A stretch of 64,000 bases of DNA, from the IMG/VR virus record IMGVR_UViG_3300008261_000125, positions 31,568-95,567 of that record. One strand, given 5' to 3'. Position numbers and translations under genes: made by a program. Under the pieces are notes generated by a model. It saw nothing but the letters and a program-made list of their open reading frames with translations. It was not told the origin of the DNA and did not search any database. The stretch comes from a virus. Shown in pieces: positions 20,155 to 45,019 of this stretch. How positions within the stretch are numbered: position 1 is the stretch's first letter; each line of letters starts with the position of its first letter.

Positions 20155-21825
20155 TTAATCCCAGTTATGCAAAGGTTTACGTGAACTTGATGTTTTAACT
20201 TCTTCAACATCAGTTACAGCTTTAGCTGCAGGTTTTTTTATAATTTTTACATTTTCAACAACAGGTTTAGCTACAGGAGTTTTTCTAATATTAGTTACAA
20301 CATTCTTTGTAGTTACTTTTGTTTTTGGAGTTATTTTATTAACTTTTTTACTATTTAATGCATTAGGATGTTGAATAGCTTTTTCAGCTTCTTCTCTTAA
20401 TATTTTATTTTGTAATTGAAGATTTTTAATTTCTTTATCTTTTTTTTGTTCTTGACCATATCCTTGTAAAGATCTTGTTCCAATATTAACAACAAATCCA
20501 GGAGGCATTTTTTCAGCAATTTTTGGAGCATTTTCTATAACATAGTCAATACCTTTTTTACCATATTTATTAATAGCATCTATACCAGCTTCACCATATT
20601 TTTGGACTAGCTCGTATCCTTTTGTACCATATTTTTGTAAAAATTTTCCTACTTCAGGGCCATACTTTAATGCTGCTTGACCTATTTGTTTAGCATACTG
20701 AACAGGTGCAGTATAGGCTTTTGCACCAAACCAAGTTGTAGGATCAGCAGCAACATCTGTATAAATGTTTCCTGTACTTTCCCATTCACCTGTTAATAAA
20801 TTATTTACACCATATAATGGAGCATTTAACATATTGGCTGCATAATCTATAACACCTTCTGAATTTGCTGGATTTAATTTAGCAACAAATTGATTAAGTT
20901 TTTTCTTACTTGGATTTTCTACTACACCTTTTCCTGATTTAGGTGGTGGAGCAAATTCATACATATCTCCTGACCATCTTTTCCCTACTTTTTCAGCGTA
21001 ATCTTCTATAGATTTAAGATCAAAATAACCATGTTCTTGTTTAAGATTACCTTCTTCATCAAATCTATCACCAGAACCACTTACCCATTCAGACTCTTCA
21101 GCAATATTTAATTTAGGTTTACTTTTTCTAAACTTATCTCTTTCTGCATATGTTTTACCATAATTTTCATTAATTAGTTTATTATTATTAGTATATTGAT
21201 CTAAGAGATATTTAGGTATTTTTTCACCTGATTCATTATATTGCCCAAATTGTTTTAGTAAATTTCTTTCTTTAGTTTCTAAAATCTCTAAAGAAGGTAT
21301 ATAACTTTTTTTGGCTCCACCTTTTTGTTTTGTATCAAACTGAGATATCATATTTCCACCATATCTAGCTTCACCTGTATCAGCATCTGGTTCTTCTTCT
21401 TGAGACTGAGTAGGTAAATAGCTAGAAGGATCAATGTCATTCTCAATGATATATGGCATAGCAATAGCAGGTATACCTTGAGGGAAACCTTTCATTGATT
21501 CTTGAATTAAAGCAAGTTTAGCTAACTTTAAATTGTAGTTAGATATCATTGCTTCTGCAGTTTTTCTTTGTAAATCTTCAGAATTAGGATCAGCAAGTAT
21601 TTGTCTGAACTTATTAATATCAAACTTCTTAGCTATTTCAGCTGGAGTATATCCTGCTTTTTTAGGAACCATTCCAAACTGAGCTATTATAATAGGATCC
21701 TTTATTTTCATCTTAGCTGTATCACTAAAAATAAAAGAGTTATCAGGAAGGTTTAATGGTGTACCACCTTGACTATGTCTTTTACCACCAATCTTAAAAT
21801 GAGCTGGTAATCCTCCTAAACTCAT
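20155..21825 (-). CDS. Putative virion cargo protein (GKRHSQGG motif); true start uncertain
   Basis: 556 aa from the first ATG. The frame stays open upstream to 21882 (KNIAREGANLEAEKGETAV), immediately after the TAA of the preceding gene. Confidence 0.55.
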   Translation of the reverse strand: MSLGGLPAHFKIGGKRHSQGGTPLNLPDNSFIFSDTAKMKIKDPIIIAQFGMVPKKAGYTPAEIAKKFDINKFRQILADPNSEDLQRKTAEAMISNYNLKLAKLALIQESMKGFPQGIPAIAMPYIIENDIDPSSYLPTQSQEEEPDADTGEARYGGNMISQFDTKQKGGAKKSYIPSLEILETKERNLLKQFGQYNESGEKIPKYLLDQYTNNNKLINENYGKTYAERDKFRKSKPKLNIAEESEWVSGSGDRFDEEGNLKQEHGYFDLKSIEDYAEKVGKRWSGDMYEFAPPPKSGKGVVENPSKKKLNQFVAKLNPANSEGVIDYAANMLNAPLYGVNNLLTGEWESTGNIYTDVAADPTTWFGAKAYTAPVQYAKQIGQAALKYGPEVGKFLQKYGTKGYELVQKYGEAGIDAINKYGKKGIDYVIENAPKIAEKMPPGFVVNIGTRSLQGYGQEQKKDKEIKNLQLQNKILREEAEKAIQHPNALNSKKVNKITPKTKVTTKNVVTNIRKTPVAKPVVENVKIIKKPAAKAVTDVEEVKTSSSRKPLHNWD

Positions 21826-21882
21826 TACAGCTGTTTCACCTTTTTCTGCTTCAAGATTTGCACCTTCTCTAGCAATATTTTT

Positions 21883-24800
21883 TTAATAGCGTTGTACTGT
21901 GTATCCTAATTTTTGTAATCTATCAATCTCATCTTCATCAATATCTGCTTCATAATACTCATCATCTTCATCTGAGGAACCTCCCATAGCATAACCACCA
22001 TATCTCATTGCTGGTTGCATTTGTTCTTGCTCAGGTTGTTGTTGTTCAGACATTTGTAATTGGTTAATTACAGTATCAATTATTTCAGAAGCTTGTTCTT
22101 CAGGTAAACCCATTTCAACAAGTTGTTCTAAAATCTGTTCTGATTCAGCACCTTGTTGTAACATTTGTGCAACACCTTGCATGATTTGTTGTTCTCTACC
22201 ATCTTGTTGTTGCATACCTCCATCTTGCATAAAGCCACCATAAGCTGCTACAGATTGTCCATGAAATTGTACAGGTGTATGATCCCGTGATCTTAACCTA
22301 CCTGAATTAATTTCAGTATCACCTTGACTTATTGCATTTTCTGGAGTTTTTATTTTTGCATTATCTGCTACTGTAGATGCTTTAAGATTTCTTTTATTAG
22401 GTGCTACCTCTGATATTTGTTCTAAACCACTTGAAATCATATCTGCTCCGGTAATTTCCCAATTAGCCATAGCCTCTTGGTTAAATTTAGGTTTACTCTT
22501 TTCAGTTATTTCAACTTGTTTTTCATCTCTACCCATACCTTTCATTTCAATATTTTTATGTTGTAACCCAACTGATTCGGGTGTAGAGTATGCTGGTTGA
22601 GAAGCACCTTGATAAGATATATTTGAAGGTGCTGCACCTGGAGCATTACCAGATGGTTGAAAAGGAGAACCTTGATTAGAAAATAAAATAGGATTAGAAG
22701 ATACTCCTAAATTACCAGTTGAAGATTGAACACCAACTTGAGCTTTTGCTAATCCTCCATATTCTTTTTGTCTAGCTCTATTTTTAAATTTTTTAAGTAT
22801 TTCTGCATCTAATGGATTTTTACTATCTAATACCATTAATGTATCTGATGTAGGGAAAACTTTTGCTATATCATCATAAGAAGCTTCTGCTACATTAACA
22901 CATCCATAAGAAGTACATCTCATGTTAGGATTTTGAGAGTTTAATTTTTTCATCCTTTCTACAAATACAGGATCTTTAGGATTAAATGCATTATCTGAAT
23001 AGACTCTATGAAAACCTAAATCATTAGCAGCAGGAGCAGGTTGACCATAAGCAGATATAGGATTCATATCTCTTGTTTTTCCTTTATAAGCTTTTTTAAT
23101 ATAATTATAATATGAACCTGGTTTACCTAGACTTCCATCATCTTCCTCAAGAACCATTGTTTTTAAATCAGGGTGTGTTAAAGCAGGTTTTCCTAAAGTA
23201 TAATAACCAACTGGAGTAGCTCTTAATGATGGGTTATTTGCTAATTGTATTAAATTATAAGGATTATAATTAGATTCAACATTTGAACCAGTTAATACAG
23301 GAAATGAACCTGCTTGTCCTTTGTCTCCAATATAATAAGCTTGATTAGTTCTTTTATCAACTACTACTCCAGATTGAGGGGCTTTTCTTTTATCTACTTT
23401 ATTTTGAGTTAATTTTTTAGCAGATGGACCAAAAGGATTTTGATAAATATGGTTTAAGTTATTAGTTACTGCAGGCATTGGAGAACTGCTTTTAACATTT
23501 GATTTTTCTGGTAATGTTCTTGGAGCAGGAACTGCTTTAACAGGAGTCTTTACTCCTTTTGTAGGTTTAGTTTCTGATTTAACTTTACTTACATTTTCTT
23601 TATTTACAACTTTTGGTTTATTATCAGATGTATTTCTATAAGAAATTTTAGTAGGATTAGCAACATCATTCAATATATTTGCTAAATTAACTTCTGGTTC
23701 TTCTTGTTGCATTTGAAGTACTTTTGCTTGAATAGCATTCATAATCTCAGGGTGATATGCTTCATCATTATTTTCATATGCTTCATCATTATTTTCAAAA
23801 GCATTACCATGATTAAATGGGTTCATCATCATCTCAACAGTCTGACCTTGAGGTCCTATTCTTGATGATTTAAATCCTCCATCTTGGTAGAATCCACCAT
23901 ATCTTTGTATTCTTGGGCCAGATTGAGGAATCATTGCTTCTTTTTGGAAATTATAATTTGTTTCTACATTATTTACTGGATTAGCAGGGTTATTCTGATA
24001 AGCATTTATTTCATCCATTACTTGATCTTCATCAATATCTTTATATCCAAAATTATAATGACCTTGAACTGGTATATTATTTTGAACTGGTGGAGTGTAT
24101 TGAGAATAAGAAGGATTTAACATATCATTTGCATACTGTTCAAAATCCATATCTTTATAATTCTCTCTTTGTCTAGGTAAAGATTGTAATTTATTTTTTA
24201 ATTCAGCTGCTCTTCTTTCTGGCATATCTTCTACAGTATGCACTGCAGGGAATCCTTCAGTAAATCCTCTTGGTTGTACTTGTATAGGATCACCTTTATA
24301 TTCACTATATGGAGTTTGATCTTTATAACCAAATTTCATTTTAGTTTTACTCCATGGTCCAAAATGTCTATGACTAAACTCTCTAAGATTACTACTAGGG
24401 TTGTTAGCTAATTTCTTTAAAGCTTCTACATCACTAGAAGAAATTGAATGTTTATATCCATAGTTCATTGGAAAATACCTCATACCATATCCTTGGTTAT
24501 AGTAATGAGCTGGATAACCATATTGTTGAGGAGCATAGCCATAAGGATAATAATCTCTTTTTGGTTGTTTTTGTGACTCTTGATATTGAGATATTATTTG
24601 ATCTAATAACTTTTCTCTTTCTGCTGCTTTTTTATTAACCTCAGTTTCTTTAGTATCTTTTGTTTCAATACCTTCTTGTGCTTTAACTTCTTTAACTTTA
24701 GTTTTATCTTTAGTACCCATGGTGTTAAATACATCCATAGTTGAACTACCTAAGTTAGCAGCTGCTTGACTTAATCCTGCTTGACCTTGATTAATGTTTT

Positions 24801-26178
24801 GTTGTAACATTTGTTGGTAAGCTTGATTTTGAGGATTAAGTTGTGGACCACCCATTTGCTTGTATTGTTCAAGCATGCTGTTTCCTTCTTCCTCTACTAA
24901 TGAATTATGTAAATTAGTTTTAATAGCATTATCAAATTCTTCTCTTCTTTTACCTGGATAGTCTGTAGCATTACCTCCTTGCATTACTGTATCTCCACCT
25001 TTAGAGAATAGTTTCTTTTTAGCTTTCTTTAGGTTGTTTATTAAGCTGTAGAAGGATCCACCTTTCTCAAACTCATTACCACCTTCTTGAAATACAGGAT
25101 ACTCATCCATATTAGATTGGTCTAACATTCCACCATATTCAGTATTAGGAAATGCACCATAGTTCATAGGAGAAGCAACATCACCTCCATCATCCATATA
25201 TCCACCACAATTCATACATGGCATTTCATTAGCACCATTAGGTAAACCTCCACCATAAGCAAAACCAGTAGAACCAGCCATTGTAATAGGATTATCTGTT
25301 GCTGAACCAATTGGTGTATTAATTCTTGTTTGTTTTAATGTACCTTCAGCACCAGGAGCACCTTGTATAAAATTAGCTACATAGTCTCCTTTATCAGTAT
25401 ATGATTTAGCAGGATCAATTTCTTGCCCTGTCTTTTTATCAAAGTATCTTCTTGTAGGATTTGCATAACCAGAATTAACATCAGGATACATATATGAATC
25501 ATAATTTTGACTTTGATTACCTGGAGATGAAAACCATTTTCTATCTATTTTATCTTGATCTTTTAAAGGAGTTGGTTGAGGTTTAGAAATAGAAGTTGCA
25601 GGAGTTGTTTGAGCTGTTTCAGTATAAACTGGTTTATAATATTGTTCAAAATCTTTAGCAGCATCTTTAGATATATGACCAGCTTCAACTAATGATTGAG
25701 GACTAACTCCAGATTGTAATCTACTTATCATTGATTGCTTCCAATCACCACTTGTACCAGAACCACTTCCAGGACTACTAATAGCTTTATCAGCTTTCTT
25801 ATCATAGAATGTTTTACTTCCTACAGAACCTAACATATTATATCCTGGTTCTACAGTAGATACTTTAGTAGCACCTCTAGGTTCTTCTTTTAATACAGGA
25901 GGATTTGGATTATTCATCCCTCCTGGTTCAAAATACCCACCATAAGCAAAATTACCAAATGGTATATTTAAATTACCATATGTAGGATCTCCAAAACTGA
26001 AGAACTCATCAGCAGTAGGTTGTCCATTGTGAGGAGCACCACTTAGTGATCCACCATGTTTCATTTGCTTATAACTTTCCCAATCTTCTTTAGTTGGAAA
26101 CTCTTTATAAAAAGCAGCTTTGCCTTCTGGGGTATTTGGAAACCCTGCTTCTGCTAAAATTTCATCTATCTTGCTCAT
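21883..26178 (-). CDS. Large low-complexity virion protein with an L,D-transpeptidase (YkuD-like) domain and many xxGG motifs
   Basis: Likely ATG at 26178 (the track's 26184 start is a TTG). VVVDKRTN...TPVGYY...GFHR...SYGCVNV matches the YkuD His/Cys signature. Confidence 0.65.
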   Translation of the reverse strand: MSKIDEILAEAGFPNTPEGKAAFYKEFPTKEDWESYKQMKHGGSLSGAPHNGQPTADEFFSFGDPTYGNLNIPFGNFAYGGYFEPGGMNNPNPPVLKEEPRGATKVSTVEPGYNMLGSVGSKTFYDKKADKAISSPGSGSGTSGDWKQSMISRLQSGVSPQSLVEAGHISKDAAKDFEQYYKPVYTETAQTTPATSISKPQPTPLKDQDKIDRKWFSSPGNQSQNYDSYMYPDVNSGYANPTRRYFDKKTGQEIDPAKSYTDKGDYVANFIQGAPGAEGTLKQTRINTPIGSATDNPITMAGSTGFAYGGGLPNGANEMPCMNCGGYMDDGGDVASPMNYGAFPNTEYGGMLDQSNMDEYPVFQEGGNEFEKGGSFYSLINNLKKAKKKLFSKGGDTVMQGGNATDYPGKRREEFDNAIKTNLHNSLVEEEGNSMLEQYKQMGGPQLNPQNQAYQQMLQQNINQGQAGLSQAAANLGSSTMDVFNTMGTKDKTKVKEVKAQEGIETKDTKETEVNKKAAEREKLLDQIISQYQESQKQPKRDYYPYGYAPQQYGYPAHYYNQGYGMRYFPMNYGYKHSISSSDVEALKKLANNPSSNLREFSHRHFGPWSKTKMKFGYKDQTPYSEYKGDPIQVQPRGFTEGFPAVHTVEDMPERRAAELKNKLQSLPRQRENYKDMDFEQYANDMLNPSYSQYTPPVQNNIPVQGHYNFGYKDIDEDQVMDEINAYQNNPANPVNNVETNYNFQKEAMIPQSGPRIQRYGGFYQDGGFKSSRIGPQGQTVEMMMNPFNHGNAFENNDEAYENNDEAYHPEIMNAIQAKVLQMQQEEPEVNLANILNDVANPTKISYRNTSDNKPKVVNKENVSKVKSETKPTKGVKTPVKAVPAPRTLPEKSNVKSSSPMPAVTNNLNHIYQNPFGPSAKKLTQNKVDKRKAPQSGVVVDKRTNQAYYIGDKGQAGSFPVLTGSNVESNYNPYNLIQLANNPSLRATPVGYYTLGKPALTHPDLKTMVLEEDDGSLGKPGSYYNYIKKAYKGKTRDMNPISAYGQPAPAANDLGFHRVYSDNAFNPKDPVFVERMKKLNSQNPNMRCTSYGCVNVAEASYDDIAKVFPTSDTLMVLDSKNPLDAEILKKFKNRARQKEYGGLAKAQVGVQSSTGNLGVSSNPILFSNQGSPFQPSGNAPGAAPSNISYQGASQPAYSTPESVGLQHKNIEMKGMGRDEKQVEITEKSKPKFNQEAMANWEITGADMISSGLEQISEVAPNKRNLKASTVADNAKIKTPENAISQGDTEINSGRLRSRDHTPVQFHGQSVAAYGGFMQDGGMQQQDGREQQIMQGVAQMLQQGAESEQILEQLVEMGLPEEQASEIIDTVINQLQMSEQQQPEQEQMQPAMRYGGYAMGGSSDEDDEYYEADIDEDEIDRLQKLGYTVQRY
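23755..23796. repeat. Perfect 21-nt tandem duplication (ENNDEAY x2) inside a CDS
   Basis: atatgcttcatcattattttc occurs twice back to back. Confidence 0.9.
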
Positions 26179-26181
26179 ATA

Positions 26182-26189
26182 CAAATATA
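26182..26189 (-). promoter_or_regulatory. Bacteroidota sigma-A type -7 element TATATTTG
   Basis: Matches TAnnTTTG; lies 3 nt upstream of the ATG at 26178. Confidence 0.55.
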
Positions 26190-26198
26190 TTGAATTTA

Positions 26199-28622
26199 TT
26201 AAATATCATCAAGCCAATTAGTAGATTCCCCACCATCTTGGTACTTTAAATTTGGTTTATATCTTCTTTTACCAGAAGGTCCATAAATAGTTTCATTTCT
26301 TAACATAATATCATTTATGCTAGTTTGAATATTTTTAGATGTAAATCTTTTTAAACCTTTTTGACCACCTTTTTTAAACTCATCTTCATACTCATCCAAC
26401 CATTCTCCACCTTCTTCTTTCTTCATTCTTTTTTTAGCTTGATTTAAGAGTTTTAAATCTTTAGGTCTTTTACTATCAATTACCATAAGTGTATCAGGAT
26501 TAGGAAACATCTTATTTATTTTATCATAAGAATTATCTCCAACATTTACACAACCATAAGAACCACATCTTAATTTAGGATCTGCTTGTCTTAATAATTC
26601 TAATCTTTTATTATACTCAACATCATCAGCATTATAAGCATCATCTGCATAAAGTCTGTGAAAAGCTAAATTAGCAGCACTAGGAGCTGCTTGCCCATAT
26701 GCAGGAATTGGATTTAAATATCTAATTTTAGATTTATAATTAACATCTTCATCATCACCTTTAACAGGAGTTAATTGTTTTTCTAAATTATAATAACCTA
26801 CTGGAGTACCTCTTAATTTACGGTTTTGTGCTAGTTGCTCTACAGTATATGGGTTTACATTTAAATCAGGGTTAGCACCTGTCATTACATTAAAAGAAAG
26901 TGTTTTACCATTATCTCCTACTGCATAAGCAATGTTAGTTCTTTTATCAACTACTACTCCAGATTGAGGTATCTTTCTATTGTCTTTATAAACTATAGGA
27001 TATTTTTCTCCTGAAGCTAATCTGTTATCATAATATTCAGGATGATAACCACCTCCTACTTGATACTCATCTAACCATCCTCCATTTTTAAAAGTTTTTG
27101 ATAAACTTAAACCCTGATAATCTGGAGAAATATTTGCCCCTATAGATATATCATTATTTAATTGATAATTTGCACCCACATATGGATTTATAATACCTGT
27201 TTGTTCAAATGTTTTAATAGGTATATAATTTCCAATATTACCTGTTAGTTTTCCTTTACCAAAAGATAATCCTAAATCTTTATATGATTCTCCTAACCAG
27301 TTCATATTTTCATTCCATCCTTCTAATAATTTATTTTCTGAAAGGTTAAATTTTGGAATAATATCTATTTGTCTTGGTTTATTATGTATATTATTTATAC
27401 CTCCTTTTTGCATATGAGTATGAGTCTTAGTGTTCTGTCCACCAAAAGGATAATGACCTGTTATGTTAGGTAGAGAAGGATCTCCACCATAAGCTACTGT
27501 ATTTAAGTCTTTAGTTTGATTATTTTTAGCTAAAGTATTAAGCATATCAATAATGGTATCATCATCATAATAAAATCTAAGATCAGAAATAGGTAGTTTA
27601 ATAGATTTATTATCAAGTATAGATTTATTTACTTTTTGACCAGGCTTTAAATTAAGAGTTCTTCTAATATCCATTATTCTAGGATACATACCATCTTTAT
27701 CTAAATATTTTTTTTGTTTTTCAAACTCGCTATAAATACCAGGATATTTTTGTTTTGCTTTATCAAAAGAATCATAGACTTTATTATAATTATCATCAAA
27801 ATTATAATCTCCATACATCTCTACAAATTTTTTATCAGAATTTTGTTTCTTATCTAAATAGTTGCTCAATATAACATCCTCCATAGTTTTTTGCAAAGGG
27901 CCTGCACCATGTGTTTGTTCATGAGTAATTACTCCTGGATTATTAAAAGTATTAACCATTGATACATGGTAATTAGGTATATAAACACCAAGTTCTCCAG
28001 GATCACCTGAAAAATAAGGATTACTTGAAGAAATATTACTAGGTGTTTTCCATCCTTGTAAAGAGTTATTATATTCTATATCATTTTGACTAACATCAGC
28101 TTTTTTTACTAACTCTCTACTAAACATTGGTAAAGCATTAAGTTTGTTTATAACTTCTTTTGTTAAAATTTTTGGATTTATATCATTAGTAAGAATATTT
28201 GACTTTAAGTTTTTACTTAATCTTTTTTGTGTTTCTGGATGCTGCAACCAATTGACTAAAAAAGGATCTACATCAGGTGCCATCTTATATGTACTTTGTA
28301 CATCATCTGTATTATTCCACCAGTCACTTATAGGATTACCTTTTTGCTTACCTTTCTGAGCCATAGGTATTTCAGTAACATACTGTCCTGGAAACTGATA
28401 GTCCATACCAGGATACATCATCTGACCATAACCTAAGTCATCTTCTCCATATACAGGGTAATTTACACCCTGCATTGTTATATCATTAGAAGGAATTTTA
28501 GTTACTTGTCCAGGGTATTTCCACTGACCTAAGTTAGTATATTGTACATCATCCTTATATGGATCTGTTTTACCTTTTGGTTTAACTATGTACTCATTTC
28601 TAGGTATCTTATTCTGTTTCAT
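26199..28622 (-). CDS. Multi-domain virion protein: zincin-like HExxH segment plus L,D-transpeptidase-like domain
   Basis: 807 aa. THEQTH at ~27909-27926. Second YkuD-like domain (AFHRLY...SYGCVNV) at ~26450-26970. Confidence 0.65.
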   Translation of the reverse strand: MKQNKIPRNEYIVKPKGKTDPYKDDVQYTNLGQWKYPGQVTKIPSNDITMQGVNYPVYGEDDLGYGQMMYPGMDYQFPGQYVTEIPMAQKGKQKGNPISDWWNNTDDVQSTYKMAPDVDPFLVNWLQHPETQKRLSKNLKSNILTNDINPKILTKEVINKLNALPMFSRELVKKADVSQNDIEYNNSLQGWKTPSNISSSNPYFSGDPGELGVYIPNYHVSMVNTFNNPGVITHEQTHGAGPLQKTMEDVILSNYLDKKQNSDKKFVEMYGDYNFDDNYNKVYDSFDKAKQKYPGIYSEFEKQKKYLDKDGMYPRIMDIRRTLNLKPGQKVNKSILDNKSIKLPISDLRFYYDDDTIIDMLNTLAKNNQTKDLNTVAYGGDPSLPNITGHYPFGGQNTKTHTHMQKGGINNIHNKPRQIDIIPKFNLSENKLLEGWNENMNWLGESYKDLGLSFGKGKLTGNIGNYIPIKTFEQTGIINPYVGANYQLNNDISIGANISPDYQGLSLSKTFKNGGWLDEYQVGGGYHPEYYDNRLASGEKYPIVYKDNRKIPQSGVVVDKRTNIAYAVGDNGKTLSFNVMTGANPDLNVNPYTVEQLAQNRKLRGTPVGYYNLEKQLTPVKGDDEDVNYKSKIRYLNPIPAYGQAAPSAANLAFHRLYADDAYNADDVEYNKRLELLRQADPKLRCGSYGCVNVGDNSYDKINKMFPNPDTLMVIDSKRPKDLKLLNQAKKRMKKEEGGEWLDEYEDEFKKGGQKGLKRFTSKNIQTSINDIMLRNETIYGPSGKRRYKPNLKYQDGGESTNWLDDI

Positions 28623-31600
28623 TATCTTGGAGAATTAAGGTTCTTAGTATTAGCTATCATTACCAACATTTTGTAATTCATAGATTGGTTTAACACAACT
28701 GCTTTTCTTAATAAAACAGAAGTAGTATAATGTCTGAATTTTTTTCTTTGAAATGGAGCTTTGTTATAATCTAGATTAAAAGTATTTAATACTCTATGGT
28801 ATCCATTAGCACCTGTGTTCCAAATAGGTCTTTGAGCAAATCCAGGAATAGTTGGGTTATAATATTCCCCTCTATCTTTAGTAGTATCCCAGAATTGATT
28901 GAATCTATATTTGTTTTCTTCCTTAGAGAATAGAACATTTATGTTAGTTGGATTGATGATTGGATACTGAAGTATTGCAGTTGGATTCTGTTTAGGATTA
29001 AGAACTAACTTCAATAATCCTGAAGTTTGTTCAGTATTATATATAATAGCTTCATTAAAATTATAATCCAATACATGGAATCTATCATAACAGTTTGGTG
29101 CATATTTGTATGCTTCCATAATATATTCAATACTTCTTAAAGATGTAACATCTTGAGCAGTATTAACCATAAACTCTACTTCAAATGGTTGATCAATATT
29201 GTAATAGTTACAATATAAATCACATCTTTGATTATGAATCCATATACCTCTAAGATCATTAGGGTTAGTAGTCATGAAAGTATTTTTACCAGGAAGTGTT
29301 AATGATGGATGCCAATCATGGTACCCAATCCAACCATCAGTTTTAGGATCATAACTTATAGTCCATGATGCATCATCAAAGTATAATTGCCATAAAGTAT
29401 CTACAGGATCACCTAGTTTAAATAGTAATTGTGTAGAAAGTACTTTGAATACATTTGAACTACCAGTGTATTGTATTAAGTTTTTAAACTCAGGTTTGAG
29501 TTTGTAATCCTTCTTACTAAAGTATAATATACCATCTTGATTATTATACATAGATTGACAACCAATACCAATAACAGGGTTATCAATAAGTTCAAAATCA
29601 GGAAAGTCTTTTGTTAATACATAAGGTAAGTATTGAGCAAACCACCATTTCATATTCATGTTGGATACCTCTTTAATACCACCTTGTAAAGAGAATACTT
29701 TACCTTGGTTTTGACTAATCCAATACAATCCTGCTGGAGTATTTATTACACTTAATCTATTTTGACAAGATGCATACTCATGAGAACTATCTACATTAAT
29801 AAGTGCTTGCATTGGTTGAGAGAATAATCCTCCATCACCAATAGTAAGTTTAGTTCCTAAACCTGTTTCTAATTGATCTGTTCCTTGAAACTGAACTGGA
29901 CTAGCAGCATCAAAGAATATCATAGCACCACTTTTATTTACTGGTTTAATACATGTTACTACATTGTCAAAATCATTATAGTTACTCGGTAGGAAGACCA
30001 ACCATCCATCCTTTAAACTTTCATATTGAGCAGGTAAAGAATAAACAGCTCTTGTTGGTTTATATACATAACATGTTTCAGCAATATATGGATCATAACT
30101 AATAGGTTGACTACTAGCCCATGATACATAATTAGAAAACATTTTAGATATACTTAATGAAAAATCATATTTATAATAGTTACCTGATTTAATAATACTA
30201 GTTTTAAATAAATCTTTAGTATCACTTCCTTCATATGGATCATAAAACTTTTGTTCTTCTAAAGCACCATAATCTCTATAGGCAGTATTAATTTCACTTT
30301 CAACAAAGAAATCTCTTACACCAGATTTAAATAAATAAAACCATCCTTTTACATCAAACCTAAACGAGTTAGGTGAAAAACCTGAAATTGCAGCATTAAA
30401 ACCTTCACCATCTAGTACATAATAACTACTAGGAACAATTGAAGGTTCACTTTGTCCAAAAGTAGCTAATTGTGAAAAAAAACTACTAGTAAAATCACTT
30501 GTTTGAAACTGATTAAAGTTAGCCCAATACTTAGGATAAGGTATCATTACATGCTGCGTGTAATCTAACTGAGCACCATCTGGTTGACCCTCTAACCAAT
30601 CATAAAAGTATAAGAAAGTATTTTTTTCTGTATATCTGTTTACATAAGTATCACCACCAAATAGTGTAGTTGTAGAAGATCCTGTACTATAACAAGGACT
30701 TACAGGTACTTGAACTATATTATTTAATTGACTATACTGATTTTTAATTCTAACTTTTAAAGCACCATAATGAGAAGCACATCTGGTTTCAAAAATTTTA
30801 TTAACCATGTCTTCTACTTTTGTAATATTACTAGGTTTTATAATACCAGATCTAGAATTATCTCCTGTTGGTACTGGTAGTTTATTAGTTGATATTGTTT
30901 CAAATGTAACAGTTCTTTGTCTATATAGATTGTTTATTTGTAAATTAGGATTTAATGATACTATTTCAGGATTAATATAAAATGCATTATCAATTTCACT
31001 TCTAAATGTATTAGCTTTATTTACATTGTCAAATTCATTATAAAACCCATGAGAATGGTATCTTAATGCAAAGTCTCTATATCTAATAATTGCTCTAATT
31101 AATCTTATAATAGAATCAGTTCCTTCAGAAAAATAGTTTAAAAACATTGGTATTTTGTATATTATTCCTGCTCCTCCTAAACCATCTAAATAACCATCAG
31201 TTTTATTAACTTCTAAATCTGGTATTGAAGCTGCTAAAACACCTGAAGCCGACATTGCAGCAGAATAATAAGCTATATTTTTTTGAGTAGCATTTGGAAC
31301 TAATGGTACTAATGCACCAATTGTATTTGAAGCTAAGGCTTCATCAGCTAATATTGTTCCTACTAATCCTAAATTTACTCCAGTAACTGGGGGGTTTACT
31401 AATAAATAACTTGGTGATAATAACCCACTAGATGTACCAGCTGCTAATACATCATTATAATGACCAGATGTAGAAAGAGTGGTGCTAAATTTTTTACTAC
31501 TTTGTCCTTGAGCTGCTTGAGCTGCTATTACTAAACCACCTATAGCTGAAATTATAAAAGATAAATTAGTAATTAGTTTTTCTTTAGGATGTTCTTCAGA

Positions 31601-33676
31601 ATATTCATATTTACCTCTTACACCCCCTTTTATTGTACCATAGAGTTTAAATTCTTTAGCAGATAAAAATGGATTATTAAAGTTAGTTTCAGGAGAGTGA
31701 AAAGTATAATAAGGATTATCAAAACTAGAACCAGGTATTGGTATATTAGCATTTATATTTCCATTACTATAAGAAGTTAATGTTGAACTTAAAAATGGAT
31801 TATTGCCTAAATCATTATATGGATAATTTGGAAATAAACCATTTTTTGTACTATTTGGTATAGCATATCTACACATGTTATTAATCATACCTTTGGCAAT
31901 AATTGTTCTATTACCATTTCTAGTACCTCTTAATATTTCATATCCTATAATACCTGGAATAGGTTGACCACTATTATCTACAGGAGGTTTGACTTTTTCA
32001 AACTTAACTCCCATTATTCTTATTTTATCTCCATTACCACTATTAAATAATACTGTATTTGAACTAGTATTATCTTCAGGAAACTTATGATGTCTTATAG
32101 GTTTTCCACATAAATCATAATCATCAATTTGAGTACTGCTGTAAGGAAAGCTAGTAACTGCTGACCAAGTATGAGCACTTGCATTCCAAATTTGTGGTTT
32201 GTTATCTGGGTAGTTTTCACTTGATTGCCAATAACCCATATAACCTTCAGCAATGACTACACCACCATCTGGTAAAACATTAGCACCTAAAGGTGGAGGT
32301 AATGGAAAAGTAGCAGTTTCAGTAGCTGTATTGTAAGTTTCAAATACGTATTCATCTCCTTCTAATGCATTACTTGCTCCAAAACTCCAAGCTGAATCTT
32401 CTTTAGCAGAAGGTCCACCAGGAATTGAATATGAAACTGCTGGTCTACCTGGAATATGATATGAAGAAGATTTATCACCTGTATCATATATCCATTGGAT
32501 AAAGTAAGAATAAACTTCATCTCTCATATACCCAACATGGTTATTACCTTTTTTGTAATAGTTAGCAGGATATTCAACTGATTGCCATTTAGCAACTATT
32601 TGATTAGCTAATGGTTGATAGTTAAAATCTTGTTTTGATGTTGGACCAACTCTTAATAAGTAATCTCCTACAGAGTACATAGCATCTGTCTTGTCCATTA
32701 TAGGAGTCATTATAGGTAACTGCTCTATAGGAATAGCTGGCCAAGTATCTTGTATAATATCAAAGCTTAATTTTTTTTGTCTAGTGCTGTAGATACCAGC
32801 TTGCCTTACTACTACTTGTTGATTAGTGCTTGAACCAACTCCAACAATTAATTCATCATAATCAGCATCAACACTATCTATAAATACATCTAATGATGAG
32901 GCTACATTATTATGATCAAATAATCCTTGAACATTTGACATATACCAGTCACTTATTTTTTGTCCTTTAATAGCATAAGCCATTACAACAAAGTAAGATC
33001 CATTAATTAGATTACCACCACTAACTCCTTTTTCCACTCTAGGACAGATAGGATTTATGTACTTAGCTAATCTAATTTTATCACAATCTAGTACAGATGT
33101 GTTTTCTGTTTCACTACATGGTGGTTGACCTTCTGGACCAGGTGCTGGTGCTTGTATCCATGGAATAGTACTTTCAGGATTACTATAAAGATTTCTAGCA
33201 GGATTATCTACATCAATCTCTAATACTCTTGATGGGTTGTTTCCATCATCCCAATATAAATTATATGTACAAGTACTTAAAGATCTTGCTACTCCTATTA
33301 CTAAATTATCTTGATTAAACTTTAAGCAAGCATCATTTACTACTGTTATGTAAGCTGGATTGATTTGTTGATTTTGACCACAGTTCTTTTCTATAAACAA
33401 TCCTATTTCAGAATTAGTATTATCAGTAGAGAAAACAGCCCATTTATCTTCAATAATATGTATGTATCCAATAACCGGATATGGTGCAGATACACAATAA
33501 AGGTTTGCTGGCTCATTACCAAGTTTTCCTAAATCACCAGTATTTGAATTATTAATAGCATTCCTAGCCTGTGTCCAGGAATTGGAGGGTAGGTGAAAGT
33601 CATTAACATCTTCATTTAAAGCTTTATCAAATGTCCTACCTTGACCACCACTAGTATTTTGTGTATTATCTTCCAT
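28622..33676 (-). CDS. Tail stabilisation / muzzle protein (crAss-like)
   Basis: 1684-aa beta-rich protein with YMRDEVY and WTISYDP...W.GYHDW motifs; follows the tail ring genes as in crAss-like gene order. Confidence 0.75.
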   Translation of the reverse strand: MEDNTQNTSGGQGRTFDKALNEDVNDFHLPSNSWTQARNAINNSNTGDLGKLGNEPANLYCVSAPYPVIGYIHIIEDKWAVFSTDNTNSEIGLFIEKNCGQNQQINPAYITVVNDACLKFNQDNLVIGVARSLSTCTYNLYWDDGNNPSRVLEIDVDNPARNLYSNPESTIPWIQAPAPGPEGQPPCSETENTSVLDCDKIRLAKYINPICPRVEKGVSGGNLINGSYFVVMAYAIKGQKISDWYMSNVQGLFDHNNVASSLDVFIDSVDADYDELIVGVGSSTNQQVVVRQAGIYSTRQKKLSFDIIQDTWPAIPIEQLPIMTPIMDKTDAMYSVGDYLLRVGPTSKQDFNYQPLANQIVAKWQSVEYPANYYKKGNNHVGYMRDEVYSYFIQWIYDTGDKSSSYHIPGRPAVSYSIPGGPSAKEDSAWSFGASNALEGDEYVFETYNTATETATFPLPPPLGANVLPDGGVVIAEGYMGYWQSSENYPDNKPQIWNASAHTWSAVTSFPYSSTQIDDYDLCGKPIRHHKFPEDNTSSNTVLFNSGNGDKIRIMGVKFEKVKPPVDNSGQPIPGIIGYEILRGTRNGNRTIIAKGMINNMCRYAIPNSTKNGLFPNYPYNDLGNNPFLSSTLTSYSNGNINANIPIPGSSFDNPYYTFHSPETNFNNPFLSAKEFKLYGTIKGGVRGKYEYSEEHPKEKLITNLSFIISAIGGLVIAAQAAQGQSSKKFSTTLSTSGHYNDVLAAGTSSGLLSPSYLLVNPPVTGVNLGLVGTILADEALASNTIGALVPLVPNATQKNIAYYSAAMSASGVLAASIPDLEVNKTDGYLDGLGGAGIIYKIPMFLNYFSEGTDSIIRLIRAIIRYRDFALRYHSHGFYNEFDNVNKANTFRSEIDNAFYINPEIVSLNPNLQINNLYRQRTVTFETISTNKLPVPTGDNSRSGIIKPSNITKVEDMVNKIFETRCASHYGALKVRIKNQYSQLNNIVQVPVSPCYSTGSSTTTLFGGDTYVNRYTEKNTFLYFYDWLEGQPDGAQLDYTQHVMIPYPKYWANFNQFQTSDFTSSFFSQLATFGQSEPSIVPSSYYVLDGEGFNAAISGFSPNSFRFDVKGWFYLFKSGVRDFFVESEINTAYRDYGALEEQKFYDPYEGSDTKDLFKTSIIKSGNYYKYDFSLSISKMFSNYVSWASSQPISYDPYIAETCYVYKPTRAVYSLPAQYESLKDGWLVFLPSNYNDFDNVVTCIKPVNKSGAMIFFDAASPVQFQGTDQLETGLGTKLTIGDGGLFSQPMQALINVDSSHEYASCQNRLSVINTPAGLYWISQNQGKVFSLQGGIKEVSNMNMKWWFAQYLPYVLTKDFPDFELIDNPVIGIGCQSMYNNQDGILYFSKKDYKLKPEFKNLIQYTGSSNVFKVLSTQLLFKLGDPVDTLWQLYFDDASWTISYDPKTDGWIGYHDWHPSLTLPGKNTFMTTNPNDLRGIWIHNQRCDLYCNYYNIDQPFEVEFMVNTAQDVTSLRSIEYIMEAYKYAPNCYDRFHVLDYNFNEAIIYNTEQTSGLLKLVLNPKQNPTAILQYPIINPTNINVLFSKEENKYRFNQFWDTTKDRGEYYNPTIPGFAQRPIWNTGANGYHRVLNTFNLDYNKAPFQRKKFRHYTTSVLLRKAVVLNQSMNYKMLVMIANTKNLNSPR

Positions 33677-37318: not shown

Positions 37319-38956
37319 TTAAATATTTGTAATTTGATAATCTCTATATGTTTTAATTACATGTTGTAATATATACACATTAGACCAAGTAAATGGTTTC
37401 GTAGCTAAAGACATTTGAACTGTAGATTGTTTTTGTGCATCTCTTCTTGCTCTTCTTGTAGTTAATATGTCATCAAAATATAAACTTATAGGTTCCCATA
37501 TAGATAATGTGCTATTCCATATTAAATCAGCACCAGCATCAAAAACTCTAATAATTTGTCCAGGTTCAATTGGTATAGGATCATTGCTAGTTAAAGTTGG
37601 TAAATCTGCAGCTGTTTTTACAGCAGGTCTTCTTTTAATATCAATAACTCCAGGATATCTGTCAGATAATGTGGTTCCATAATCAGGGTCTATAACTTCT
37701 GTCCACATATTTTTAATAACACCTGAATCTTCATAATAAATTTGACTAATAGGATAACCACCATCAAATACATTTATATATTTTAAAGGAGCTTTTCCAT
37801 TATTGTTGTAAAAAATATCATGAGGAAAAGTTAATGAATTAAGATTTAAGTTTTCTCCAGGTAAATATGATTGTGGTTTAGGTTTATCATATGGTTGAAA
37901 TCCTGTACCTGCTGATGATGCTAATAAAACCCCCCATTGACGTTTCATAAAAGAATCTCTTTGTTCTCTATATATAGTTCCAATGTCTCCTTCATTTAAT
38001 TCAGGTCTATATATACCATAACTATTTAAATCAGTACATGTAGGTATAACCCTTTTATCATCCATAAAATCTAAATCCATTGTCACCCAATTAAAGAAAG
38101 TTTGACCTTGATCACAAAACTCTACATTGTAAGAATTACATACAGATGCATTAACTGGATAACAATCTTCATTAGTATATCTATAATAAAAAGTTTTATT
38201 AGCTCCATTAGCATCAGTTACTTTTAGTTGCAAAGTAGTACCAGCTATAGTAGATCCATCTTCTTTTAAAGTTGTTTTTGGTGTATATGCACCAGTTAAT
38301 TTTGGTCTTCCATTATATACAGCCCCATTAAATTCTCCATCAATTTTTTTAAAATTTACATCTAAATAAATTTTGTTTGTATTTGTTGGAAGACAACCTC
38401 TGAAATAATGACCAGCTTGATCTCCTTCAGCAATTGTCCATTCATAAGTATATGGACTTTGACCACCAGTAATTGTTACCTCTACAGAGGGTGTTAAAGC
38501 TTTCATATAAGCAAACCACTGAGATTCTCCTATCCAACCTGGACCACATGGAGGTGTTGACCCTATATAATTATCAAATGGTGCTGGTATATCTCCACAA
38601 CAATATGGTGTATTATCACTAAGTTGAGCAGCACAACTTAAGCTTGTTACATAATCAGTATATCTCTGATCTGGATAAGAAGTAAACTCAGCTTCTAAGT
38701 CACAATATCTTTTATTGATGTAATCCATTATATCATTTAATCCAGCACTAATTGGTGAATTAGTAGGGATAACAGGTCCATTAAGTCCTTCAATAGGATC
38801 ACCTGTATATATGACACAGTCAGCATCAAATGTTTCAGTACATGGAGATGGGTCTGGACATGCTGGTGTATTTGGAATACAATAATCAGGAGTTGTCATT
38901 GATTGTGGAATACATCCACAATTACATTCTTTATCACATTTATTACAGTTTGACAT
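37319..38956 (-). CDS. Putative fibre protein with Cys-rich N-terminal domain and Ig/SprB-like ITGGQSPYTYEW segment
   Basis: 545 aa; N-terminus paralogous to that of the 38968 gene. Confidence 0.55.
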   Translation of the reverse strand: MSNCNKCDKECNCGCIPQSMTTPDYCIPNTPACPDPSPCTETFDADCVIYTGDPIEGLNGPVIPTNSPISAGLNDIMDYINKRYCDLEAEFTSYPDQRYTDYVTSLSCAAQLSDNTPYCCGDIPAPFDNYIGSTPPCGPGWIGESQWFAYMKALTPSVEVTITGGQSPYTYEWTIAEGDQAGHYFRGCLPTNTNKIYLDVNFKKIDGEFNGAVYNGRPKLTGAYTPKTTLKEDGSTIAGTTLQLKVTDANGANKTFYYRYTNEDCYPVNASVCNSYNVEFCDQGQTFFNWVTMDLDFMDDKRVIPTCTDLNSYGIYRPELNEGDIGTIYREQRDSFMKRQWGVLLASSAGTGFQPYDKPKPQSYLPGENLNLNSLTFPHDIFYNNNGKAPLKYINVFDGGYPISQIYYEDSGVIKNMWTEVIDPDYGTTLSDRYPGVIDIKRRPAVKTAADLPTLTSNDPIPIEPGQIIRVFDAGADLIWNSTLSIWEPISLYFDDILTTRRARRDAQKQSTVQMSLATKPFTWSNVYILQHVIKTYRDYQITNI

Positions 38957-38967
38957 GTTATATTTTA

Positions 38968-41076
38968 TTAATAAGGTGCAACATAAACAACATTAGTACC
39001 ATCAAAATAACTCATATATATAGTACCATTACTACCAGTTAAAAATTTACAATTAGTATTTCCATACACAGGACTAGCAGAATTTATAAAATCTATAGCA
39101 AAATAACCTGTATTAAATTCATTAAAACTAAAATTACTTAAAGTTTCAAAACCTATATTAATTGAACACTCTTCACCTATAATTATATTATTTGTACAAT
39201 CAGCTCCAAATTTACTACCAACTATTCTATCTATTTTATTATACTTAAAGTTATTTCTAAAAGTACTCCCCTCTACATATTTTAATGTATTAAACGTAAA
39301 TAATCCATAAGTAATACAGTCACTCATATTTTGAATAACATTTCCCCCAAAACCATCTGCAATGGTGTTAGCATAAAAAAAATCTTTTATTTGATTATTT
39401 CTAAAGTTATTTCCAATAGTATTACCAAATTGTGTTAGATCAGGATCAGCACTACCAAAGTAATTTCCTATTTGATTATTTTGAAAATCTTCACCTATAA
39501 TATTAGATTGAGAACCTGGTGCTTGTTTAGTATTACCAAAATAATCTCCTATAACATTATTATTAAATCTATCACCTATTTCATTATTCCATATATAATT
39601 ACCTAATGTATTACTATCTGCATTACCAAAAGTATTACTATAATTAGTATTACCTCCATTATATCCACAATAATTACCTATTGTATTGTTTGTAAAAAGT
39701 CCATTAAATATATTATATCCACAATTATCACCTATTGTATTATGTTCAAGTACAGCATTTATAGTATTGTTAATAAAATTAAAACTAATTTTATTAAAAG
39801 CCATCGGAACATTTAAAATTGTATTATTAGTAAAATTTGTTTCTATAACATTGAAACAAAACTCTTGACTTGAGTTATTTATATTATTTGATGCAAAGCC
39901 TCCTCTTATTGTATTAGAATAAAAAAGTGAATAACTAATATTATTGTCTTTAAAACTATATGGTTCTGCATAACCAGAATTATCAATTATATTAGATTCA
40001 AAATCACTTTCTGTAATTATATTTTGTACAAAATAATTATTTATAGTATTATTAATAAATCTACTTCCACTTACAATATTATTGTTAATAAATTGAAAAT
40101 TAATATTATTATTATCAATAATATCACCAGTAATTCTATTTCTTATAAAATTGTTTTTAATATTATTATTTTTAAAACTTTCAAAAAATGCTATACTATT
40201 ATTAACACAATTATTTCCAATTATATTATTTTTTGTTAAATTAGAAAAGTCATTATCAAAAACATTATTACTTAATAAAAAAGGTAAATTAAATTCTGTA
40301 TTATTACCTATATAATTATTTGTAGAATTATTATTTAATAAATCAAAAGTTAAAAATTCACTACTAGCATATCCTGTATCATAAAATACATTATATCTTG
40401 AAGTAATAGGATCTTCTTTATACCTTTTAAACAATATATGTCTATGGTCATAATCAGTTCTGTTATTCCACTCATCTATTCTTTCAATGATTCTACCTTT
40501 TGCAGGAGCATTCATTACTTCTGTATTAGTAAAAGTTATATCAAATTTTATTTGATCTTTAGGATGAAGAGTTGATACAGCCTCTGGTAATAAAGCATTT
40601 GTAGTTGCAGCAGTTACAATCAAAGGTTCTATTGGACCTGTCTTAGTAGCTACTACAGTTTTAGGTGTTGCATCTCTTAACTCTACTGGAGTTACAGGTA
40701 AATTTCCTGTATAATCAGGTTGATCATATATAGTTTGAAAATTACTAATTAAATACTTAGCACCAGGTGTTAATGAATTTGTATTAATTAAATTAGTTAA
40801 ACTAGTAAAAGTTACACTTGTAGGAGTAATAGAATTATAGTTTATATAATTTACAATATTTTGCACACTAGTACTTATAGGAGTATTAGTAGGAATGATT
40901 GTACCGGTTGTCCCAGTGATAGGAGGTCCAGTGTAAATTACACAATTTGCATCAGTAGTTTCATCACAAGGAATAGGATCTGGACAAACAGGTGTATCAT
41001 TTGGACAAAGGTTTGGTGTTGTTAAACCTTTAGAAATACATCCACAGTTATTTGTATTGCATGTTGAGCAGCTCAT
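38968..41076 (-). CDS. Putative tail fibre/spike with Asn-rich beta-helix-like repeats
   Basis: Likely ATG at 41076 (MSCSTCNT). Many (F/C)xNNxIG-type repeats; EWNNRTDYDHRHILFKRY segment. Confidence 0.65.
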   Translation of the reverse strand: MSCSTCNTNNCGCISKGLTTPNLCPNDTPVCPDPIPCDETTDANCVIYTGPPITGTTGTIIPTNTPISTSVQNIVNYINYNSITPTSVTFTSLTNLINTNSLTPGAKYLISNFQTIYDQPDYTGNLPVTPVELRDATPKTVVATKTGPIEPLIVTAATTNALLPEAVSTLHPKDQIKFDITFTNTEVMNAPAKGRIIERIDEWNNRTDYDHRHILFKRYKEDPITSRYNVFYDTGYASSEFLTFDLLNNNSTNNYIGNNTEFNLPFLLSNNVFDNDFSNLTKNNIIGNNCVNNSIAFFESFKNNNIKNNFIRNRITGDIIDNNNINFQFINNNIVSGSRFINNTINNYFVQNIITESDFESNIIDNSGYAEPYSFKDNNISYSLFYSNTIRGGFASNNINNSSQEFCFNVIETNFTNNTILNVPMAFNKISFNFINNTINAVLEHNTIGDNCGYNIFNGLFTNNTIGNYCGYNGGNTNYSNTFGNADSNTLGNYIWNNEIGDRFNNNVIGDYFGNTKQAPGSQSNIIGEDFQNNQIGNYFGSADPDLTQFGNTIGNNFRNNQIKDFFYANTIADGFGGNVIQNMSDCITYGLFTFNTLKYVEGSTFRNNFKYNKIDRIVGSKFGADCTNNIIIGEECSINIGFETLSNFSFNEFNTGYFAIDFINSASPVYGNTNCKFLTGSNGTIYMSYFDGTNVVYVAPY

Positions 41077-41078
41077 AT

Positions 41079-42563: not shown

Positions 42564-42618
42564 GCTATAATTTTAGTATGTTAATTTACATAATTTTTAT
42601 TTTATACACAATATTTAT

Positions 42619-44268: not shown

Positions 44269-44269
44269 A

Positions 44270-44434
44270 TTATCTAAAAGTTTTAATATTAGGATTAGGA
44301 GGCTGAGTATTTTTGATAGTTTTTAATTTGTTTTCATATAAACCTAAACAGTTACTACATACACTTTTTCCATCAGTTGCCACTCTCTTTTGGCAACCAC
44401 ATGATAATTTAGCATTACAGTTAAGACAATTCAT
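44270..44434 (-). CDS. Small Cys-rich protein, 54 aa (not in ORF track)
   Basis: Hand translation MNCLNCNAKLSCGCQKRVATDGKSVCSNCLGLYE...; fills the gap between neighbours and is preceded by AAACCAAC. Confidence 0.7.
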   Translation of the reverse strand: MNCLNCNAKLSCGCQKRVATDGKSVCSNCLGLYENKLKTIKNTQPPNPNIKTFR

Positions 44435-44455
44435 ATTAGTTGGTTTTTAATTGGT

Positions 44456-45019
44456 TTAACATGTTTTACAAGAACTACTGCAACTTAATTTATCAATTAG
44501 CTTAACAGCATATCTGTATAGTTCCATACCTTTTGAAGGATCATGACAATCTTCTACATATGCTTTAGCAGCTTTTAAATATTGTTGTATTAATCTTACT
44601 TGATTAAGTTTATCTTTAATAGATGCTGGTGGATCACAAGCACCTAATGATAAAGAACAATAGATCTCTTTTATTCTATTGTCTGCACAAGTAGTTCTTA
44701 AATGATTATACTCTACATATACTAAGTCTTTAGGTTCTACACTATACTTAACTATATAAATACCATCTGGTACATCATAGAATGTAGTACCACAATCTGA
44801 TACTTGTAATTCTAAATCACAAGCTGTAAGATTAAGATTAAATCCTGGTAGTATTTGAGGGTTAGTAAAGTTTACAGGATGTATATACCCTGGAGGTGTA
44901 ATCTGTAAGAGGGGGCAAGTCACAGGTATAGTTGTTGCATATACACTTGTATCCACCACTCTAAAAATACATTTGTTCATTGTGTCTGGAATTTCCAAAC
45001 TTAATACATGTTTTGCCAT
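44456..45019 (-). CDS. Putative structural protein (tail hub-like)
   Basis: 187 aa with a DVPDGIYIVKYSV motif; position in the structural module. Confidence 0.45.
   Translation of the reverse strand: MAKHVLSLEIPDTMNKCIFRVVDTSVYATTIPVTCPLLQITPPGYIHPVNFTNPQILPGFNLNLTACDLELQVSDCGTTFYDVPDGIYIVKYSVEPKDLVYVEYNHLRTTCADNRIKEIYCSLSLGACDPPASIKDKLNQVRLIQQYLKAAKAYVEDCHDPSKGMELYRYAVKLIDKLSCSSSCKTC

Follow-up and report, generated by a model that had tools for sequence, protein, structure and literature searches.

An uncultured metagenomic crAss-like phage, IMG/VR record IMGVR_UViG_3300008261_000125 (95,567 bp, about 80% complete, 30% G+C), raises the question of what a short peptide motif ending in two glycines does in a set of large, modular proteins. 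The window analyzed here is a stretch of 64,000 nucleotides (positions 31,568 to 95,567 of that record; coordinates below are those of the window), and nearly all genes lie on the minus strand. The motif, Phi-x-x-Gly-Gly (Phi-x-x-GG, with Phi a hydrophobic residue), recurs in three consecutive open reading frames (ORFs) encoding cargo proteins of 807, 1433, and 556 amino acids (aa). These ORFs are located on the minus strand, as are all modules and peptides described within them, at 26199..28622, 21883..26184, and 20155..21882, respectively, the last range including 19 in-frame codons (21826-21882) upstream of the ATG. An initial annotation of this DNA had offered two explanations: the ORFs could be polyproteins cut after GG, or the motif could be a capsid-targeting tag with swappable passenger domains. 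The motif is real and widespread. As to its function, we tentatively favor uncut junction tags that would act as hinge and docking handles at the seams between modules.

Enrichment and vocabulary of the di-glycine motif

The three cargo ORFs (2796 aa) contain 21 copies of the motif in its strict form, [MFY]xxGG, against 6 copies in the remaining 28,156 aa of the genome (Fisher p=1.9e-17), which corresponds to 7.5 versus 0.21 copies per 1000 aa. GG alone occurs at 12.2 versus 3.2 per 1000 aa (p=2e-9). All motifs listed for these ORFs by the initial annotation were found at their places, and the enrichment over the rest of the proteome that its reading implied was borne out. The 1433-aa ORF contains 20 GG, 13 of them within [MFY]xxGG, while the corresponding numbers are 9 and 6 for the 807-aa ORF and 5 and 2 for the 556-aa ORF. 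When residues were shuffled within each protein (5000 rounds), none of the shuffles of the 1433-aa protein reached the observed 13 copies (mean, 1.44; maximum, 7), and 2 of 5000 shuffles of the 807-aa protein reached the observed 6 (mean, 0.71), ruling out composition alone as the cause. Enrichment in the 556-aa protein by itself was not significant (2 observed; mean, 0.36; 245 of 5000 shuffles reached 2).

The giant RNA-polymerase-like cargo ORFs (937, 2044, 3623, 1096, and 1904 aa) contain 0 to 1 motif copies each, which suggests that the motif tracks the proteins threaded first and not packaging in general. A general capsid-targeting tag, as initially proposed, is weakened by this distribution, although the swapping of passengers that was part of the same proposal is evident among relatives.

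In de-duplicated contexts from the 807- and 1433-aa families, information content is found at position -3 (Met, Tyr, or Phe, also Lys), -2 (Ala, Lys, Gln, or Glu), -1 (Tyr, Asp, or Glu), and both glycines, and Trp, Tyr, or Leu is weakly preferred just after GG. The fuller vocabulary comprises Phi-x-x-GG (often as a doublet, GG-x(4-8)-GG), GG-WLDx-Phi, YGG-LxKAQxG, and two types of terminal handle. GG-WLDx-Phi-...-GG is present in three copies in the 807-aa protein, and the AQxG variant mentioned in the initial annotation was recovered as YGG-LAKAQVG at residues 1142-1152 of the 1433-aa protein. A repeat search identified a five-copy family of an 11-residue doublet, xYGG-Phi-xxx-GG-x, in the 1433-aa protein (reference copy, 22213..22245; other copies, 23872-23904, 25180-25212, 25228-25260, and 25915-25947). 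The DNA of these copies is only 64-73% identical, and the Gly codons used at GG match overall Gly codon use, both of which point to selection on the peptide and not on a DNA signal. A DNA-level cause, such as a recombination hotspot or a Chi-like GGTGG sequence, was ruled out on the same grounds. No description of the motif was found in the published literature, nor any paper with GGWLD-type strings in a phage context.

Modules, seams, and exchange among relatives

The 807-aa protein consists of an N-terminal handle, an HExxH module, a disordered motif-rich linker, a YkuD module, and a C-terminal handle with a WLD tail. AlphaFold2 predicts ordered parts at residues 25-88, 98-365, and 545-737, and every GG motif lies between confident domains, in stretches with a predicted local distance difference test score (pLDDT) of <50. 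The motifs had initially been described as falling between recognizable units, which agrees with the AlphaFold2 model; however, one of those units, a "beta-strand module" at about residues 420-510, is of low confidence and has no predicted strands. A TOP-IDP disorder proxy was uninformative, as the aromatic residues of the motif lower the local score.

The N-terminal handle (28359..28550; residues 25-88; pLDDT, 54-85) is a small beta domain and the most widely conserved block of the family, recurring at 55-80% identity at the N-termini of proteins of 93 to 2225 aa. No clear fold match was obtained for it; VIA returned just cupin- or jelly-roll-like matches at a Z score of about 4, which we do not trust. 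The helical HExxH (zincin-like) module (27528..28331; residues 98-365) carries HEQTH at 27909-27923 (residues 234-238), in which the H, E, and H show 90% or more conservation across 12 homologues with identities as low as 28%. Pfam (E<=5), Foldseek, and a wide VIA search gave no family assignment for this module, the 807-residue model being long for a single-domain search. The linker that follows (26991..27527; residues 366-544; pLDDT, <50) contains AYGG, YPFGG, MQKGG, FKNGG, and the unit GGWLDEYQVGG (27051-27083). The YkuD (L,D-transpeptidase-fold) module (26412..26990; residues 545-737) was predicted with a pLDDT of >90. By VIA it matches Csd6 (4xzz; Z=12.8, with a root mean square deviation of 2.7 over 132 residues), Pgp2 (6xj7; Z=11.9), and Tlde1a (7uma; Z=8.7), and its best Foldseek match is DpaA (8ikr). 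The C-terminal handle (26202..26411; residues 738-807), which recurs at the C-terminus of many relatives, comprises a GG-flanked WLD helix (26364-26411), a conserved helix, and the tail YQDGG..NWLDDI (26202-26243).

The 1433-aa protein is likewise a modular cargo protein. Its motif-dense linker (24835..25287; residues 300-450) has 11 separate GG sites, several of which are invariant in relatives (G351, G352, G368, G369, and G397, among others). A second YkuD module is located at 22852..23367 (residues 940-1111; Pfam PF03734, 24.4 bits with the cut-off at 23.4). The two YkuD modules are paralogues joined by a 209-nucleotide direct repeat of 73% identity (23187-23395 versus 26777-26985), and both retain the catalytic His and Cys of the fold (FHR...SYGCVNV). 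Their structural neighbors, namely, the hydrolytic Csd6, Pgp2, and DpaA and the type VI secretion system effector Tlde1a, suggest that these modules may trim peptidoglycan at entry rather than cross-link it. The YkuD insert of the 1433-aa protein and its residues 640-760 are present in few homologues. The downstream border of the insert is the junction word YGG-LAKAQVG (22729..22761), at which alignments end (1140-1148) or start (1140). This word is 70-100% conserved apart from its two variable x positions and starts or joins ORFs in relatives. The C-terminal handle of the 1433-aa protein (21886..21999; residues 1396-1433) contains a YGG..GG doublet, an acidic stretch, and the end ..EI..L...GY.V..Y.

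Two further features of the 1433-aa protein were observed. The doublet AAYGGFMQDGG contains YGGFM, the sequence of Met-enkephalin (22228-22242; residues 1315-1319), and RYGGFY is present at residues 761-766; YGGFM almost certainly arises just from the YGG-Phi word and does not represent a processed peptide. At 22090-22146 (residues 1347-1365), in a Gln-rich helical region before the C-terminal handle, there is a UBA-like match that is weak and falls short of the cut-off (PF00627; E=0.004).

The 556-aa ORF encodes an N-terminal domain of the pattern GG..GG..H..GG, and its family of 857 relatives either carries about 75 extra N-terminal residues or is fused. The 1433-aa ORF ends with a TAA (21883-21885) that shares its frame with the 556-aa ORF, whose first ATG is at 21825, and the 19 codons between the TAA and this ATG encode residues nearly invariant in the 556-aa family (R, ANLEAE, E). 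The TAA lies within a run of seven A (TATTAAAAAAATATT). This stop/start arrangement at 21826-21885 could reflect initiation at a codon other than ATG (ATT), read-through, re-initiation, or a sequencing error.

In a 50%-clustered library, 2853 relatives of the 807-aa protein were found at E<=1e-3, each of which has only some blocks in common with it. Lengths in this family range from 93 to 2225 aa; the handles (residues 1-91 and 738-807) are kept, and the passengers between them vary. Motif density across the family is 5.4 per 1000 aa (142 representatives listed, 50% clustering, plus the query). Among 41 homologues of the 1433-aa protein, Phi-xxGG was observed 313 times versus 53 expected. The GG and positions -1 to -3 form islands of 80-100% identity within variable linkers, and these glycines make up most of the invariant columns. 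In the four close IMG/VR relatives L001-L004, enrichment is confined to the post-muzzle ORFs, and the module string is split into 2, 3, or 4 ORFs. More distantly, Cellulophaga phage phi4:1 gp039-gp041 are positional counterparts annotated as virion proteins from tandem mass spectrometry; gp040 has motif-like instances, namely, a small count of 4 Phi-xxGG and looser Phi-Q-x-GG-like copies.

Borders of BLAST high-scoring segment pairs against about 300 relatives were mapped onto the query proteins. Their ends cluster at residues 376-380, 408, 512, and 736-739 of the 807-aa protein and at residues 78-88, 327-349, and 1140-1148 of the 1433-aa protein. These borders coincide with motif sites across relatives, in agreement with the initial view of modular proteins with motifs at their seams, and passengers (YkuD, HExxH, and others) have been gained, lost, and swapped there. 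About 12 of about 180 family members have the HExxH module, whereas the motif is shared by nearly all.

The same words are found at natural N-termini, at natural C-termini, and at internal junctions. Among the 142 listed representatives of the 807-type, 98 (69%) have a W[LIV][DENQ] tail within the last 12 residues, and 81 end in GG-x(0-5)-W..-x(0-6), whereas a single one ends at GG. WLD is within the first 12 residues in 5 of the 142, mostly directly after Met-Lys-(Gly). Of 213 internal WLD, 186 follow a GG at a distance of no more than 4 residues, and 137 are flanked by GG on either side. As every module ends in the same words, the seams appear to be the places where phages swap, fuse, or split passengers. 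The acidic ..EI..L...GY.V.Y end is present in 25 of the 41 1433-type homologues, namely, in all 25 unfused forms and in none of the 5 fused to a 556-type domain, which fits a terminal handle standing in for a covalent link. The five fusions are joined via YGG/FGG-(A/P)LP(K/Q)AL.., and the acidic GY.V.Y handle is also C-terminal in a Leptolyngbya phage protein.

Proposed junction tags, possible cleavage, and the crAss001 comparison

Terminase (56651-58852), portal (53875-56643), and major head protein (50838-52463) were assigned with PHROGs and Pfam. The 1684-aa muzzle protein gene (28622..33676, minus strand; Pfam PF25731 crAss_MUZ, E=1.9e-20; PHROG virion structural protein) served as the synteny anchor and is followed, in order, by ORFs of 807, 1433, 556, 498, 937, 2044, and 3623 aa. 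This layout matches the crAss001 order of muzzle, cargo proteins, and giant RNA-polymerase-associated proteins (gp44-gp45-gp46-gp47; PMC10172136). The three motif-rich ORFs thus occupy the position of crAss001 cargo protein 1, directly downstream of the muzzle gene and upstream of the giant RNA-polymerase-like genes. By tblastn of the muzzle protein, the nearest cultured relatives, at 24-27% identity, are Leptolyngbya phage Lbo-JY46, csAssE-Sib, and Cellulophaga phages phi4:1 and phi17:2. When the annotated phage collection was searched with the cargo ORFs by megablast and tblastn, there were no matches, and these distant cultured relatives were reached via the muzzle only. The products of the 807-, 1433-, and 556-aa ORFs are probably carried in the particle and injected.

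The crAss001 cargo protein 1 (gp45; PDB 7QOG, 7QOI, 7QOJ, 7QOL, and 8CKB; Pfam PF25725; Bayfield et al. 2023, PMC10172136) is, like the proteins studied here, encoded directly after the muzzle gene and is itself a large, Gly-rich, mostly unresolved virion protein. It has three strict Phi-xxGG copies, likewise a small count of motif-like instances, and YGG/FGG variants. Words in common are FSAYGG, FGGWLNTQGG, MFAYGG, NWLD near the C-terminus, and an internal handle-like ..MSVEELEAL..G... Residues 425-552 of gp45 have been modeled as one chain bound to the portal (PMC10172136), and this range opens with the doublet FGGWLNTQGG (GG at 427-428 and 434-435). The 214-245 piece, bound in the tail barrel, starts four residues past FSAYGG. 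The gp45 protein is inferred to be a single chain spanning tail and capsid (PMC10172136). Virion bands of crAss001 at 150, 270, and over 300 kDa (PMC6235969) come near the masses calculated for the large cargo proteins (gp49, 154.5 kDa; gp47, 262.5 kDa; gp50, 276.9 kDa; PMC10172136), a comparison by mass alone. The crAss001 papers give neither a band assignment nor cleavage data for gp45, and PMC10172136, from whose text "cleav" and "proteoly" are absent, makes no mention of the motifs.

In contrast to gp45, the function is here distributed over three ORFs, with enzymatic passengers (HExxH and two YkuD) that gp45 is without. No homology to gp45 was detected: with the 556- and 807-aa proteins as queries, BLASTP gave no significant match and phmmer against PDB sequences found nothing, and a 556-aa family profile against PDB gave no gp45 and only low-complexity matches to TolA-like repeats. 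A search of the whole genome with PF25725 crAss_CARG1, the portal-bound domain, was negative at E<=10. When the 575-aa model was compared with PDB by Foldseek, nothing was returned at E<=0.001 and no 7QOG chain appeared, the PDB chains holding fragments only.

The reading that we favor, tentatively and as the likeliest of those considered, is that the words are uncut junction tags. The three ORFs would encode tail-proximal cargo or ejection proteins at the gp45 position, each built of independently folding modules (N-terminal handle, HExxH, two YkuD, and helical domains) on disordered joining segments. The Gly pair could serve as a hinge or helix break, and the nearby aromatic residue or Met, together with a short amphipathic helix, as a sticky handle. 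With such tags, the chain would remain extended and flexible, which would allow storage of many copies in the portal and tail lumen and their threading through it; the tags might also dock segments on ring-shaped virion parts or on a neighboring cargo protein.

Cleavage after GG was not supported and is, in our view, unlikely. The ORFs would then be polyproteins, cut in the procapsid or after ejection by an unrecognized phage or host protease or by the embedded HExxH module. The motif sites are exposed, dense, and at domain borders; ORFs are fused or split at the seams in relatives, so that covalent continuity looks dispensable; and the HExxH triad is conserved. However, the searches revealed no cognate protease. 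Adenain C5 (PF00770), Ulp1 C48 (PF02902), and C39 (PF03412) peptidases had no match at E<=1 in the genome, whose record is about 80% complete, and PHROGs revealed no prohead protease in the head module. The sporadic occurrence of the HExxH module argues against a dedicated enzyme. Natural C-termini almost never lie at GG, as the single case among 142 indicates, and the WLDx-Phi that follows GG is conserved. Cutting at GG doublets 4-8 residues apart would give tiny peptides, and in crAss001 gp45 a motif doublet lies inside a continuous modeled chain (PMC10172136). The hydrophobic residue is at P5, versus P4 in the adenain consensus.

Several points nevertheless weigh against uncut junction tags. 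Because gp45 homology was found neither by sequence nor by fold, the crAss001 evidence transfers only by synteny and shared motif words. The information in the motif is almost wholly N-terminal of GG (-3 to -1), which is typical of GG-specific protease sites, and six small basic proteins encoded beside the capsid genes have motif-like peptides close to their ends, which recalls adenovirus core precursors. As the record is incomplete, a protease could be missing from it. Finally, the published prediction for polyvalent phage proteins is that zincin-like peptidases embedded in them carry out processing, and P1 DdrB undergoes processing prior to packaging (PMC5512222).

It is also possible, though quite improbable, that the words are legacy seams, that is, conserved ends of ancestral small proteins that now serve as linkers or recombination joints with no binding or processing role. 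Identical words at N-termini, C-termini, and internal junctions would fit such an origin, as would seams that stay constant while module content differs greatly among relatives. However, GG and its flanks are nearly invariant among proteins with 23-30% identity while linkers vary, and an aromatic residue kept at a fixed distance would be needless in a plain linker. Nor can short-homology recombination maintain the words, since the DNA of the copies has diverged. We consider it very unlikely that the tags are instead host-directed epitopes, with ejected disordered Gly/aromatic/acidic peptides binding periplasmic or envelope proteins and pulling cargo and peptidoglycan enzymes across the envelope. 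In favor of such a role, which in colicins and filamentous-phage g3p is that of the TolB, TolA, and TonB boxes, the modules lying next to the motifs have a target in the periplasm (YkuD fold), the cytoplasm-acting polymerase-like cargo lacks the motifs, and their style appears to resemble that of colicin translocation domains, in which an aromatic/acidic peptide stands between glycines in a disordered region. However, the words are common to phages of Bacteroides, Cellulophaga, and a cyanobacterium, and a conserved virion partner fits phages of such distant hosts better than diverse host proteins do. The probability outside these four readings belongs to others, including sortase-like use of GG by YkuD.

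Among known systems, short disordered or terminal peptides load interchangeable passengers into an icosahedral container in the T4 capsid targeting sequence, the encapsulin cargo-loading peptides, and the carboxysome CsoS2 repeats. Unlike those tags, the motif described here is multi-copy, internal, and missing from capsid-stored polymerase-like cargo. Targets of the adenovirus protease (C5), African swine fever virus pS273R, and Ulp1-like C48 enzymes likewise contain a GG that follows a hydrophobic residue, recurring both in precursor-like virion proteins and in small basic ones. However, the present system differs from them in having no C5 or C48 protease in the genome, the hydrophobic residue one position farther from GG, conserved post-GG residues, and termini that are not at GG. 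The polyvalent proteins (Iyer et al. 2017, PMC5512222) are similar in that several unrelated enzymatic domains are present per virion-delivered chain, including peptidoglycan-targeting domains and a zincin-like peptidase, and in that domain content is highly variable among relatives. At least two unrelated domains in a virion-gene context, as in polyvalent proteins, are found here as well: the 807-aa protein combines HExxH with YkuD, and the 1433-aa protein combines YkuD with other blocks. With regard to the zincin-like metallopeptidase of those proteins, the HExxH triad is conserved, although, as noted above, no Pfam match at E<=5 and no fold match were obtained. In contrast to the present proteins, PMC5512222 has no conserved junction peptide ("linker" is absent from its text) and does not cover crAss-like phages. 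New in the present analysis are the terminal-handle statistics, the correlation between fusion and handle, the motif-poor polymerase-like cargo, and the doublet inside the resolved crAss001 chain.

Phages of the crAss-like group rank among the most abundant viruses known, and megadaltons of protein have to be packed into their capsid and tail and then passed into the cell. A conserved junction tag, common to relatives sampled from a family of thousands, would offer a handle on which proteins thread first and on how enzymatic modules are exchanged without breaking packaging, and it would indicate where to cut or graft in cargo-delivery tests. There is a small chance that Phi-x-x-GG is the processing or sorting signal of a maturation system new to tailed phages, read either by an unrecognized protease cutting after GG, with the injected effectors maturing from polyproteins in the manner of adenovirus and African swine fever virus, or by YkuD, which might use GG as a sortase-like donor site to fix ejected modules covalently on host peptidoglycan. 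Should the tag prove to signal cleavage or transpeptidation, it would mark out a maturation system of a new kind in tailed phages.

Small basic proteins and neighboring ORFs

Six small Lys-rich ORFs (56, 58, 172, 52, 81, and 55 aa) are located at 48158-49623 on the minus strand, in the head-gene region and about 1.2 kb downstream of the major head gene. The motifs that had initially been noted in small basic proteins are indeed present (KKQTGG, 49226-49243; MKMGG, 49289-49303; YTGG twice, 49501-49563), but they fit the consensus more poorly than those of the cargo proteins. Together, the six ORFs contain 7 GG in 474 aa, a tandem VVTNPTRYTGGKN repeat, and a KMKMGG five residues from a C-terminus, and the 172-aa protein carries both KKQTGG and LKKAQVG. 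Isoelectric points of 10.6 and 10.7 were calculated for the 172- and 81-aa proteins, respectively. The six may be packaged DNA-binding proteins with related tags.

Other ORFs lie between this cluster and the muzzle gene. A 149-aa ORF (46496-46945, minus strand) has a short tail with two GG (FLKRDGG and STGG) before a helical core, which, reading the sequence by eye, we take to have a Dps/ferritin-like look. An endonuclease VII/HNH-type ORF (47648-48154, minus strand; PHROG E about 1e-29) opens with MLNSAILI, and the same eight residues open the next ORF downstream, a virion structural one (46954-47655). Insertion of a homing endonuclease seems to have duplicated the start of that structural gene. 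Five consecutive ORFs (545, 715, 494, 549, and 187 aa; 37319-45019, minus strand) have no PHROG matches, and at least four of them have Cys-rich ends (e.g., CNKCDKECNCGC); these may constitute a paralogous set of tail-fiber or spike proteins.

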